The notes under the pieces are model-generated. The model made no database searches and was not told where the DNA came from. It saw only the letters and a list, made by a program, of their open reading frames with translations. This document shows positions 45,720 to 52,946 of a stretch of DNA of 64,000 nucleotides, piece by piece. The stretch comes from Candidatus Bathyarchaeia archaeon (GTDB lineage Archaea; Thermoproteota; CALKCG01; B24): positions 896,001 through 960,000 of the forward strand of contig JAVZJD010000001.1 of NCBI GenBank assembly GCA_038870975.1. The letters are read 5' to 3'. Positions within the stretch are counted from its first letter, which is position 1. Each line of letters opens with the position of its first letter. The position numbers and the translations under genes are program-made.

Positions 45720-46010
45720 GTGGGCATTGATGGAAAGCACTCATACCAGGAGCCGTTTGCATCTGTAAAAGAGGCTAAGGAGAAATACGGAGATAGGATA
45801 GTTATCCTAGGCGGTGTAGACGTGGATAAGCTCACCCGCCTTCGTATAGATGAGTTAAAAAGCTACGTCCTAGAGATCATACGGAGCTGTGCACCCGGCG
45901 GCGGGTATGCATTAGGCTCTGGAAACTCCGTGACCAATTACATGAACTTAGAAAACTACAGGGAGATGATACGTATGTGTGAGAAGTACGGTAAGTATCC
46001 CTATAAGTAA
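45720..46010 (+). pseudogene. C-terminal fragment of a uroporphyrinogen decarboxylase-family protein
   Basis: KEKYGDRIVILGGVDV, APGGGYALGSGNS; N-terminal two-thirds absent. Confidence 0.75.
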
Positions 46011-46023
46011 GGAGCCGATTCGT

Positions 46024-47159
46024 ATGAAACCGATAGAGAGGGTGTTTAGAGCCTTCAGCCTAGAGGAGCCTGATAGAGTCCCCTTATGGGAGGGCTGGAT
46101 AACAAACGACGGCGTCTATGAGGCTGTTATAGGCTATAGCTTAGACAGATACCTAGATGAATTTCTAACCAAGGCAACAGTGTCTGAGAGGGAGGATAGA
46201 ATTAGAAGGGCTAGAATTCTTGCTGAGGCTCAGATAAAATGCTATAGAAGACTTGGGCTGGATATGTCGCCTATATGGGGATCAGCACCTCCATATGACT
46301 GGAAGCCTGTTAGAATAGATGATGAAACCTTTGTAACGGAAACTGGGGCGATCCACCGCTATTCTCCAAAGAGCCATCAGACATGGGTAGTAGACTACCC
46401 TGTTAAAACCCTGAAGATGCTAAAAGTTACATGTATCCAGATCCTCATGCCCCCGGTAGGCTTGACCACGTAGAGGCTTTAGTTGCCGAGGCGCACAAGT
46501 ACGACATGCCTGCCGTAATCGAGGTTGGAGGGGGGCTAGAGTACACGATAGAGGAGGTAATATCGCTTCCAAACCTAGTAGTGCTTATGTTCCGTTATCC
46601 AAGCTTGGCTAGAAGACTGATAAACATGGTTGTTGACTTTAGTATTGAGATAGGTAAAGCCGCCATAGACATGGGGGTAGACGTCATTGAGATAAGCAAC
46701 GACAGTGGCTGCGTTTCCGGACCTATGTTATCGCCTAAGCTATTCCACGAATTCATAACGCCGACGCTTGAAAGACAGGTTAAAACCTTCAAGAGTAAAG
46801 GAGCTATAGTCTTCGTCCACTGCGATGGAAACGTATACCCTATACTTGAAGATATGGTTAAAAGTGGGATAGATGGATGGCATGCAATAGAGCCTCAAGC
46901 AGGTATGGACATAGGATATGTAAAGAAAAAATATGGAGACAGGATATGCCTCATAGGAAATATAGACGTGTCCCACACGTTACCTTTTGGAAGTGAGGAA
47001 GACGTCATAAAGGAAGTTAAGGAGAGAATAAACATAGCTGCACCGGGAGGTGGCTATATTCTAGCGTCATCAAACTCCATCCATAGGGGCGTTAAACCTT
47101 CTAACGCCATAGCCATGTATAAAGCTGGCAGAAAGTATGGTGTATATACAGAACGATAA
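46024..47159 (+). pseudogene. Uroporphyrinogen decarboxylase-family (MtaA/CmuA-like) protein split by a frameshift at ~46410
   Basis: EEPDRVP start, HCDGN, GGGYILASSNS; adding one C to CCC 46409-46411 gives VKTPEDAKSYMYPDP and joins both ORFs. Confidence 0.8.
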
Positions 47160-50375: not shown

Positions 50376-51386
50376 ATGGTAAAGCCTATAGTTGAAATTA
50401 CGGCTGACAGTAACATACCCTTGATAGGCTCAGTGGGATTTGGACTTATCGATAGAGGTACAAACGTTATACAGGTTAGACCTACAAGTATATGTCCACT
50501 TTCATGCATATTCTGCTCCACCGATGCAGGACCTAAATCGCTTAGAAGAGCCGTTGAATACATAGTTGAACTAGACTATCTAGTGGAAGAATTCAGAGGG
50601 CTTGTGAAGTTTAAAAACTGTAAGCATGTTGAAGCACATATAGACACCGTAGGAGACCCTTTAACTTATCCAAGGCTTCCGGAGCTCTGCCAAGCTTTAA
50701 GGGAAACACCAAACGTTGAAGTAGTGTCTCTCCAAACGCATGGATTCCTCCTCACGGAGAAGCTGATTGACGAGCTTGAAGCAGCCGGATTGACCAGGAT
50801 AAACCTTTCAATAGATAGTTTAAACCCGGATAAGGCTAAGATGCTCTCTGGAACTGAAAATTATCATGTGGATAAAGTTGTAGAGATGGCTAAATACATA
50901 GCTCAATCGAAGATAGACTTGTTAATAGCACCTGTATGGGTTCCGGGGATAAACGACAACGATATTGAGGAGATCATCCAGTTGGCTCTTGAGATCAAAG
51001 CTGGGAAAAGCGCTCCACCATTGGGGATTCAGAAGATGCTTACTCATAAACACGGTAGAAAGCCTAAGGGAGTTAAACCCATGAGTTGGAAAACCTTCTA
51101 CGATAGGCTTAGAAGCCTTGAGAACACATACAGGGTTAAGCTCATACTCAGCCCAGAAGACTTCGGAATACATAAATGTAGAGAACTGCCCTTACCCTTC
51201 CAGAAGTTTGAAAAGGTTTGGGTTGAAGTCGTCGGCTTAGGCTTATTCAAAGGGGAAAAGCTTGGAGTAGCTAGAGGTAGAGTGTTGACCGTTGTAGATG
51301 CTGATGAAGCACCCGTAGGTTCTAAGATCAGGGTTAGAGTTTTACGTGTTAAGAACAACATATACATGGCTAGGTTTGAACCGTAA
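50376..51386 (+). CDS. Radical SAM protein with C-terminal TRAM-like domain
   Basis: FGLIDRGTN, CPLSCIFC. Confidence 0.9.
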   Translation: MVKPIVEITADSNIPLIGSVGFGLIDRGTNVIQVRPTSICPLSCIFCSTDAGPKSLRRAVEYIVELDYLVEEFRGLVKFKNCKHVEAHIDTVGDPLTYPRLPELCQALRETPNVEVVSLQTHGFLLTEKLIDELEAAGLTRINLSIDSLNPDKAKMLSGTENYHVDKVVEMAKYIAQSKIDLLIAPVWVPGINDNDIEEIIQLALEIKAGKSAPPLGIQKMLTHKHGRKPKGVKPMSWKTFYDRLRSLENTYRVKLILSPEDFGIHKCRELPLPFQKFEKVWVEVVGLGLFKGEKLGVARGRVLTVVDADEAPVGSKIRVRVLRVKNNIYMARFEP

Positions 51387-51397
51387 ATAGAGGTTGC

Positions 51398-51618
51398 ATC
51401 ACCATCGGCAAGAAAGCATAGAGTTTCAACGGTGGGATTAACTATCGGTAAGCTTAAACATCTTTTCAACGTCAATGTTTCAAACGGGTACCGCTCAGAT
51501 GTAGCTTGAACGTCCAAAAAGCTGGAATAAGACTCCGAGCCGAAATGGCGTTGGATTGGTGAAAAGCTGAGCTTAGAAAAACCGAGAATCTCCCGACTTT
51601 AGTCGTAGGGAGCGTCAA
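51398..51618 (+). mobile_element. Non-autonomous IS200/IS605-family element (left end, omegaRNA-like interior, right end)
   Basis: Degenerate left end CGGCAAGAAAGC..GGGATTAACTATCG 51406-51447; right end GAAT + hairpin CTCCCGACT-TT-AGTCG..GGAG + TCAA 51586-51618; no ORF. Confidence 0.75.
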
Positions 51619-52946
51619 CTGCCGGAGAGTTGAACCCGCTCAAATTTTACGTGTGGACTGTAGGAGTTTCCCCTACCATGCAGGTCTTTTGAAAGACCTA
51701 CAACCTTATCCTTCATAATCTGGTAGAAGTCTCCGCCTATAACGGCTCCTTTAACCCTCCCCTCAATAGATCCGTTGACTATCAAATATCCATGTGTCAC
51801 AGTTGCGTTTAAATAGCCGCTTACAGGGTTGGAAAGCCACTCCCCTATGGTTTTGAGGATGTAAACCCCCTTCGAAGTTTCCCCGACCATCTCATCAAGC
51901 TCGTAGTCTCCAGGCTTAAGTATGAGGTTGTTCGGTAACGGTCTTGACGACGTTGCCGAGGCTTTATGTGAGTTCCCAGTGCTTTCACGCTTCTCCCTAT
52001 TAGCGGTATACGTATCATATAGGTATGTCTTTAAAACTCCGCTCTCTATCACGCAGTTCCTCCTCACAGGTATACCTTCGTCGTCGCACGTTCTACTTCC
52101 CATAAAGCCTGGAACAGTCCCATCGTCGATAAACGTGACCTTTGGAGACATAATTTCACTCCCAATCTTATTAACAAGTGGAGACCTATTCGTTTGAACA
52201 GAGTCCGCCGAGATCGCCATAGACAATAGACTACTGAAGATCGACGCCGCTACACGTCCATCTAAGATCAAATCGTACAGCCCAGTATCCAAGGCTTTAG
52301 CGCCGATAAACTCGTAGGCTTTTAACCCAATCTCTCGCCCAAGTTCATACGGTTTAACCTCATCCATAAAACGCGCCTGTTGAAAATCTGAAAAAGTTGC
52401 AGACTCACTCCCTTCTCCAGCCTTGGCAGTCGCATAAATCACTATGAACGTGTCTCTTCTAGAGACCTCTTCACCATGAAGATTCGCTATCGTTCTCTCC
52501 GATATTTCGACGTTTAAAGCTCCATAAACCGATTTAACTCCATACTTAGAGGAGTTTATTCCCTCTATAGTTGATTCAGCTATTTCTACAGCTTCTTCAG
52601 GCGTTAATTTCGCCAAACGTTCATCGTACACTCTATCTACACTCGTTACACCTAAACCCTTAGGGGCGGAAACCCAATATGGGTCTTCAGGGCTGGCTCT
52701 AGCTATCTTAACAACTTTGTCAACGGCTTCTTCTAACCCCTGTGGAGTGACATCATTGGATAGATATAGTCCTATACGCTTACCTACTGCCACTCTAAAA
52801 CCCACTACGCATCCGTTTGTGTATCTGCAAGCCTCTACCTTATCTGTGAAATCTACGGTTAGTCTTTCTCTTCGAATAACGGTTAAATCTCCATCCTCAG
52901 CTCCAATACTCGTAAGCTTATCTAGAATCCTTCTAAGGTTAAACAC
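51615..52946 (-). CDS. tldE: TldE/PmbA family protein
   Basis: DDEG, YLYDTYTA, STGN, no HExxxH; GTG start after SD GGAGGTGG. Confidence 0.9.
   Translation of the reverse strand: MFNLRRILDKLTSIGAEDGDLTVIRRERLTVDFTDKVEACRYTNGCVVGFRVAVGKRIGLYLSNDVTPQGLEEAVDKVVKIARASPEDPYWVSAPKGLGVTSVDRVYDERLAKLTPEEAVEIAESTIEGINSSKYGVKSVYGALNVEISERTIANLHGEEVSRRDTFIVIYATAKAGEGSESATFSDFQQARFMDEVKPYELGREIGLKAYEFIGAKALDTGLYDLILDGRVAASIFSSLLSMAISADSVQTNRSPLVNKIGSEIMSPKVTFIDDGTVPGFMGSRTCDDEGIPVRRNCVIESGVLKTYLYDTYTANREKRESTGNSHKASATSSRPLPNNLILKPGDYELDEMVGETSKGVYILKTIGEWLSNPVSGYLNATVTHGYLIVNGSIEGRVKGAVIGGDFYQIMKDKVVGLSKDLHGRGNSYSPHVKFERVQLSGS

Follow-up and report, generated by a model that had tools for sequence, protein, structure and literature searches.

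The elements closest to the locus described here are the palindrome-associated transposable elements (PATEs) of Haloquadratum (PMC3119063) and Geobacillus (PMC10055086), which, in the passages of these papers that deal with their structure, lack terminal inverted repeats and target duplications, carry IS605-like subterminal hairpins and are too short to encode a protein. The same passages state that PATEs often encode omegaRNAs, and propose that these are used in trans with TnpB (PMC10055086). Stand-alone omegaRNAs, mobilised guide RNAs that work in trans without an effector or transposase of their own, are likewise reported in sections of PMC10691335, and a pseudoknot to a right-end motif is given as a characteristic omegaRNA feature in an excerpt of PMC12558985. 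TnpB is reported to release its omegaRNA by processing the mRNA that encodes it (PMC10278001, in extract), which raises the question how protein-less elements make a usable guide RNA. For IS608 (ISHp608), part of PMC5934647 describes the guide and cleavage pairs AAAG/TTAC and GAAT/TCAA, a need for the flanking TTAC in excision, and a preference for TTAC followed by C; IS607 elements, which depend on a serine recombinase, have GG as their last bases (PMC13565253, in part).

We identified an element of this kind in the window, by which we mean the whole 64,000-nt stretch of DNA analysed, part of a 1.85 Mb genome (G000) that is 92.9% complete. It is a protein-less IS200/IS605 derivative (PATE), as a preliminary description made from the sequence had claimed, and lies between a radical SAM gene (+) and a tldE/pmbA gene (-) that converge on it (Table 1). 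The latter has NCBIfam PmbA as its best match, below the cut-off, and is placed downstream of a TldD-like gene. There is no protein gene in the 221 bp, which are crossed merely by spurious minus-strand frames. The motifs cited in the preliminary description (TTGC, AAAG, CTTAAA, GAAT, the hairpins and TCAA) all lie where it had placed them; the interval 51394..51640 that it gave extends past the element on both sides, since end homology, empty sites, TTAC spacing and the IS608-type tetranucleotides set the limits at 51398-51618, and 51619-51640 is host tldE sequence outside the element proper.

Table 1. Features of the element and its flanks, in window coordinates.
Feature	Position	Strand	Basis or remark
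Whole protein-less IS200/IS605 element (PATE)	51398..51618	+	221 bp; absent in 4 relatives; family alignment
Radical SAM gene, 336 aa, left flank	50376..51386	+	ORF; Pfam Radical_SAM 85.6 bits; converges on element
PmbA/TldE-like metalloprotease subunit gene (tldE/pmbA), 449 aa	51615..52964	-	Pfam PmbA_TldD domains 1-3
Host target / left cleavage site TTGC (family: TTAC)	51394..51397	+	Orthologous 4-mers each hold a stop
Left-end guide AAAG and decayed subterminal hairpin	51413..51436 (AAAG 51413-16; hairpin 51416-36)	+	Aligns to family left ends
TATA-like putative promoter from tnpB gene; family YTTAAAT, here CTTAAAC	51447..51459 (CTTAAA 51453-58)	+	Family position
Decayed remnant of GAGCG-NGT-CGCTC hairpin	51484..51496	+	Family alignments
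Pseudoknotted module, 5' part (predicted): stem P1, 3-bp extension GTC/GAC, pseudoknot 5' strand GCTGGAA	51499..51548	+	A1/A3 pair counts
Approximate deletion breakpoint, 70-90 nt lost	51549..51551	+	Length difference to intact copies, model alignment; uncertain by several bases
Surviving internal stem of family omegaRNA (internal loop, GA tandems)	51551..51586	+	R2 positions ~83-118
Right end: guide GAAT, hairpin, cleavage site TCAA	51586..51618 (GAAT 51586-89; hairpin 51590-51612; TCAA 51615-18)	+	32/35 vs family right end
tldE/pmbA TGA stop from element (TCA on +)	51615..51617	-	ORF end; translation ...RVQLSGS*
Host flank, would-be guide of an intact omegaRNA	51619..51634	+	Seed search of genome

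We found the site empty in four of the seven other genomes of the same family (G001, G003, G006 and G007), which hold both flanking genes 16-25 nt apart, with the radical SAM orthologue adjoining the empty site. G002 has another neighbour gene, and G004 and G005 gave no flank match; the tldE ends of these three, 30-31% paralogue-level matches, were unusable. The element is 75-80% identical, over aligned columns, to four intact copies of 287-311 bp, and the subterminal hairpins at both of its ends (the left decayed, the right nearly intact) are homologous to the ends of tnpA/tnpB elements. Folded as single-stranded DNA, the left hairpin reaches -3.4 kcal/mol in the window copy vs -8.1 in the PATE L059. 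The right-end 35-mer is nearly that of the family (Table 1), the next best site in the 1.85 Mb genome scoring 24, and in sequencing runs the breaks of other right ends fall at 51617-51619. Family ends also flank Pfam-confirmed TnpB (L061, L063) and TnpA with TnpB (L076; L041 for the right end). The ends are mutually unrelated and the flanks carry no duplication, and a classical MITE was rejected on these grounds.

The tetranucleotides AAAG, GAAT and TCAA are identical to those of IS608, and only the left cleavage site is mutated, TTGC being one change from TTAC. Of 46 distinct family left ends, 34 have a TTAC at a distance of 13-19 nt ahead of the AAAG guide, an unbiased count that replaces a regex-biased 36/36, and the corresponding spacer in the window copy is 15 nt. 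The orthologous 4-mers in the relatives are CTAC, CTAT, TTAC and TTAT, each holding a minus-strand stop, then a Lys codon. The simplest reading is that the ancestral target was likely TTAC followed by CT, which would place the insertion before C, the preferred +1 base of IS608 in the passages of PMC5934647 on target choice; the predicted pre-insertion sequence was not seen exactly in any relative or in the four sequencing runs inspected. The window copy differs from IS608 in having no tnpA or tnpB, in its TTGC left cleavage site and in its hairpin sequences. The family shares ends, promoter position and a 3' scaffold with right-end pseudoknot with archaeal IS1341/IS605 TnpB elements (L061, L063, L076, L176), SisTnpB1 and Halobacterium sotRNAs; full-length elements lack the module described below, which had no match at E below 0.07 in 16 tnpA/tnpB loci, and no Rfam model matches the family.

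The TATA-like CTTAAA, also pointed out in the preliminary description, occupies the family promoter position. The motif stands about 25 nt before the tnpB start in L061 and L063 and before the transcript start in the PATEs L059, L084, L069 and L024, a geometry that we take to be that of a promoter, and the motif probably acts as one. The GAGCG-NGT-CGCTC hairpin that follows also opens the tnpB reading frame in the family.

A genome-wide search for the ends, which the preliminary description had suggested, was fruitful in other genomes, where tnpA/tnpB donors with related ends were found, and gave no further copy in G000: by BLAST, nhmmer and model R1 the element is single there. A loose right-end regular expression gave over a hundred chance matches in G000 and was discarded, and a BLAST match at C2:749.5 kb was rejected as an extra copy because it lies inside a coding region. 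Elsewhere in the family, the records L095, L096 and L120 hold divergent PATE sequences at one insertion site, which suggests gene conversion or fast divergence among copies.

The element also bears on the gene into which it was inserted. As had been noted, its right end supplies the tldE stop codon, TCA at 51615-17 being the reverse complement of TGA. Read on the opposite strand, TTAC and TCAA contain TAA and TGA in a common register, so that insertion at a gene end of the form G-TAA keeps the stop and alters the last codon alone. The swap from TAA to TGA that had been put forward therefore fits as nearly harmless, but the ancestral TTAC is a likely precursor rather than an observed one, and the last sense codon would have changed too, presumably from Arg to Ser (relatives have Lys). 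The present TTGC is probably the former stop codon of tldE, mutated once freed from selection. Precise excision with today's TTGC would add 8 residues to TldE before the next stop, so that the host is only mildly dependent on the element, and we rejected the idea that the element is locked in by lethal excision for the same reason. We compared 62 distinct right ends, the window's among them, that have 330 nt or more of flank; those closing a frame of at least 100 codons number 6 in the stop register vs 2 and 3 in the other frames, which is unconvincing as an enrichment of stop-codon insertions. The two longest frames so closed are full-length genes in the right flanks of L058 and L085, one for a GH2 hydrolase (581 aa), the other for a beta-CASP nuclease (441 aa), and both stop on the terminal TCA of the element. 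A literature search found no published stop-codon insertions of this sort, and the swap may be one way for such elements to settle in gene-dense genomes.

We investigated the omegaRNA of the family in the last 150 nt of 23 elements (set A2: 19 of 42 candidates and four added by hand, copies with an extra hairpin being left out), which mix PATEs and tnpB elements. In the predicted fold, TTGAC pairs with the GTCAA of the terminus, and the remaining helices are a 5' hairpin, an internal stem and the right-end hairpin. Of the 35 pairs, 14 show changes on both sides; each TTGAC/terminal GTCAA pair is conserved in 21-23 of the 23 sequences. A PATE subgroup (L024, L080, L084-L086, L133 and others) carries an extra 18-19 nt hairpin in the loop of this pseudoknot. 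The internal loop of the family omegaRNA, in the window at 51557-51586, contains TGATGA/CTGA-like words; the stem at 51551..51586 may be kink-turn-like, and these words are reminiscent of an L7Ae-binding kink-turn.

Intact protein-less relatives measure 264-333 bp, a range that omits one 175-bp entry with a falsely called end, against 221 bp in the window copy. Pairwise alignments and the family omegaRNA model R2, which was built without the window, place a deletion of about 70-90 nt near 51550. Five intact PATEs on which R2 had not been trained reach 96.8-123.5 bits and two damaged copies 73.1 and 51.6; the window obtains 36.5, with an alignment that takes in just the last ~65 nt and leaves out the 5' half. 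The module 3' strand, the omegaRNA 5' hairpin and the TTGACAC pseudoknot hairpin are deleted and, because the 5' hairpin and the pseudoknot partner are gone, the copy can no longer form the family omegaRNA. The window copy thus departs from PATEs said often to encode omegaRNAs in having lost half of its own.

The preliminary description had seen in the interior a working stand-alone omegaRNA with a guide antisense to the tldE 3' end. The missing 5' half of the scaffold and the want of a cognate TnpB or TnpA in G000 speak against such an RNA; that the guide is antisense to tldE is simply a consequence of the landing site. The covariance-model check that it proposed turned up no meaningful match in Rfam (including HEARO, sot, IS605-orfB, RAGATH and ribozymes) for the window, eight family loci, L138 or L203, and whole-region folding was no better than shuffles (z -0.8). 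The motifs AACGTCC..ATAAGACTCC, assigned in that description to the omegaRNA interior, belong to a separate upstream RNA module that has no match in full-length tnpB elements. Intact relatives, by comparison, appear to be stand-alone TnpB omegaRNAs, as judged from a full scaffold in common with tnpB elements and a cognate TnpB in G081.

We additionally searched G000 for partners and targets. No Y1 TnpA and no cognate TnpB was found in this 92.9% complete assembly; its two intact TnpBs share 30-33% identity with the cognate protein and have IS607 ends, a MerR-resolvase gene standing next to one of them, and were rejected as partners on account of those ends. The missing TnpA or cognate TnpB could lie in the unassembled part. 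No site with TTAC and a 12-nt seed match with up to 2 mismatches was found in G000, and the only target of the would-be guide is its own empty allele. With no Y1 TnpA, a single copy and no excision joint in four runs, the window copy does not appear to be mobilisable in trans at present. The family is mobile elsewhere: G081 holds 24 module copies, a TnpA and an intact TnpB 79% identical to the cognate. A decayed 3' remnant of a tnpB of the same family, with omegaRNA and right end, lies at G000:C2:769341-769617 (-) (L005; 36.3 bits on R2), showing that the family was once present in G000 with its nuclease. A protein-less IS607-type mini-element at G000:C2:713333-713560 (-) has a left end, a structured interior, an omegaRNA-like 3' part and a right end ending in GG, and does not match the module model; G000 has IS607 recombinase and TnpB genes, and as a candidate for a live stand-alone omegaRNA this locus is more promising than the window copy. 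In G001, L041:1528-3015 (-) is a single 496-codon frame with Y1 TnpA and TnpB domains that starts at the contig end, possibly a TnpA-TnpB fusion or overlapping genes in one frame.

Strain variation was inspected in 4 of 19 listed runs, from four studies (X2, X3 and X8 DNA; X13 RNA). The element is present in every one of them, always with its deletion, and neither an empty allele nor an excision joint was found. Over 801 nt, 11 of 12 substitutions in X2, 11 of 12 in X3 and 8 of 10 in X8 fall inside the 221-nt element, the three DNA runs sharing most variants and not being independent. The excess in X2 is marked against all flank sites (p 5e-6) and not significant against synonymous sites (p 0.06 for X2/X3, 0.33 for X8), a pattern that fits neutral decay. 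No changes at TTGC (51394..51397) are listed in the four runs. The differences within the element in X2, X3 and X8 are mostly A/G transitions. RNA-library contigs (X13) cover 51293-51606 and 51627-51756, and carry no strand or ends; gaps in their coverage have no evidential weight.

The window copy is most likely a decaying fossil. A functional omegaRNA, whether as a TnpB guide against the empty allele or as an antisense RNA to the tldE 3' end, would draw on the surviving promoter-like motif and right end, on the fit of the 3' 65 nt to R2, on the presence of the region on an RNA-library contig that gives neither strand nor ends, and on the precedent of trans-acting stand-alone omegaRNAs (PMC10691335 and PMC10055086, in part). 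We nevertheless regard it as highly improbable, given that the deletion took the 5' hairpin as well as TTGAC, which pairs with the terminal GTCAA in the kind of pseudoknot to the right-end motif that is typical of omegaRNAs in the excerpt of PMC12558985, that G000 has no cognate TnpB that we could find, and that substitutions accumulate. Domestication, in which the copy is kept for the tldE stop and perhaps as a terminator or insulation between the convergent genes, is only slightly less improbable. The element's presence in every run from four studies, a T5 run after the right-end hairpin on the minus strand, and the loss of any stop at that codon upon precise excision with TTGC would all agree with it; against this, the excised gene gains only its short extension, variants fall even in the right-end hairpin (51607-51611), a scan for bacterial-type terminators found none, and the relatives do well with about 20 nt between the genes.

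For the fossil itself, we consider it very probable that TnpA acting in trans inserted the element at TTAC, that the freed TTAC drifted to TTGC and that the copy is now inert. The family is active in hot-spring archaea, and a PATE moved by a TnpA from elsewhere would have entered 3' of TTAC, the reverse complement of the G-TAA ending of tldE. Since TTAC and TCAA carry TAA and TGA in the same register, the stop would have stayed at the same codon and the insertion, being nearly neutral, could have spread. Later decay would have turned TTAC into TTGC, eroded the left hairpin and removed the 70-90 nt, both the ancestral TTAC and the order of these events being reconstructed; TTGC likely blocks excision by TnpA. 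Taken by itself, the window copy is a neat fossil of an ordinary kind, and its family matters more.

The motifs AACGTCC..ATAAGACTCC match a 70-nt segment that in intact PATEs stands between the tnpB promoter/start hairpin and the omegaRNA. A metagenome scan with the core of this module gave 58 loci, and those with enough flank are short, protein-less elements. The proposed fold has a 9-bp stem, a bulged base, a 3-bp extension and a 7-bp loop pseudoknot with bases abutting the omegaRNA. Set A1 comprises 34 of 57 stretches, with the core fixed by the search pattern and the window included; in it 93.7% of cells are paired, both sides change in 8 pairs, and each measure is attained by 0-1 of 500 shuffles (0 of 500 for the covariation score). 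Set A3, 22 of 27 loci found with a model that does not encode the pseudoknot, shares no locus with A1 and has 84.7% of cells paired, with covariation in the pseudoknot itself (CG 9 / UA 9; GC 9 / CG 6); none of 500 shuffles attains its covariation score, and two of five measures are not above shuffles (182/500 and 220/500). The shuffle tests of both sets ignore relatedness. Compensatory changes occur in both the module stem and the pseudoknot, alongside many G-U pairs. In the window copy the module stem is decayed but kept and the GTC/GAC extension still pairs, while the pseudoknot 3' strand TTCCAGC is lost with the deletion. The loci L208, L209, L082 and L102 hold module variants with short internal deletions.

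Model R1 scores the window at 57.2 bits, the window having been in its training set, and matches 11 of 151 genomes of the window's phylum, including the 24 copies of G081, and 2 of 5 genomes behind other loci (7 copies in G152). We identified at least five unrelated omegaRNA types behind the module (clusters of 30, 5, 3 and 2, and the G152 type), and in all types seen the module runs directly up to the start of the omegaRNA. It is present in IS607-type elements (L203 and L204), whose two ends match G000's own IS607 elements, and in G152 elements with unrelated ends. It had no match at E below 0.07 in 16 tnpA/tnpB loci, and the tblastn matches within 93 module loci came from neighbouring elements or a shared 3' tail; a coding piece of tnpB was rejected on both counts. 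The sole module upstream of a tnpB, L201, was also set aside, as here a PATE precedes a separate left end of IS607 type. The module core has no match in viral contigs. From these comparisons, the module was seen only in protein-less elements, directly 5' of the omegaRNA, in both IS605 and IS607 types.

By analogy, the module resembles exoribonuclease-resistant RNAs and small self-cleaving ribozymes: a compact pseudoknot whose loop bases are invariant sits where a functional RNA begins at its 5' side. It has no Rfam match. The order of its strands (P1, P3, P2 inside the loop) is presumably unlike HDV-like, twister and pistol folds, and those assignments were rejected by comparison with the consensus folds. 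A conserved pseudoknotted module in place of tnpB sets this family apart from PATEs in the passages of PMC3119063 and PMC10055086 consulted, which do not mention one, and intact relatives likewise add to the published stand-alone omegaRNAs (PMC10691335, in part) a 5' structured module common to IS605 and IS607 types. PATEs and their omegaRNAs are thus already known and the module appears undescribed: we found no description of it in the literature covered (PMC13343696 and 10.1101/2023.03.06.531077 among it, in part), and supplementary motif catalogues or subscription papers may hold one.

The module might instead not be a functional RNA, and be either a DNA hairpin for single-strand transposition or a founder fragment spread by recombination among PATEs. 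It lies on the strand used by TnpA, often travels with the same left end and promoter, and is decayed in many copies. We consider this unlikely, because the module also occurs in the IS607-type L203 and L204, served by a serine recombinase, and in the G152 elements with unrelated ends, and because compensatory changes, G-U pairs and the abutment on the omegaRNA start in every type favour a structured RNA.

An RNA-level role is suggested by the position of the module and by its occurrence in protein-less elements only, under both transposase systems. Intact members would probably be expression cassettes, composed of the tnpB promoter, the pseudoknotted 5' module, the omegaRNA and a guide derived from the flank; loaded in trans by TnpB, their RNA would direct cutting of the empty allele, and the element would be retained. 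A transcript that is not translated and has no TnpB of its own may require protection, or a different way of arriving at its 5' end. The module most likely acts as RNA; on this reading there is about an even chance that it shields or matures the 5' end of the transcript until TnpB binds, perhaps as an aid to loading, self-cleavage is considerably less probable, and a protein-binding site or other role would account for the rest. Tentatively, and a little short of even probability, we propose that a portable 70-nt module, as a 5' shield or new small ribozyme, replaced tnpB in guide-RNA transposons of thermophilic archaea and was swapped among at least five omegaRNA classes of IS605 and IS607 types, so that orphan guides could mature and capture TnpB in trans, the window copy being a broken witness. 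The same guarded credence attaches to the joint reading in which this exchange goes together with a TTAC/TCAA pair that lets elements insert on stop codons almost without harm. The module would be a small, thermostable candidate for how protein-less elements make guide RNA; as a stabiliser or processor of RNA it could be put to use in expressing TnpB guides, and if self-cleaving it would represent a new ribozyme class.

Elsewhere in the window, at 45720-47159, we observed three consecutive or overlapping frames that we take, by eye, to be uroporphyrinogen-decarboxylase-like, one of them apparently split by a frameshift near 46431-46473.
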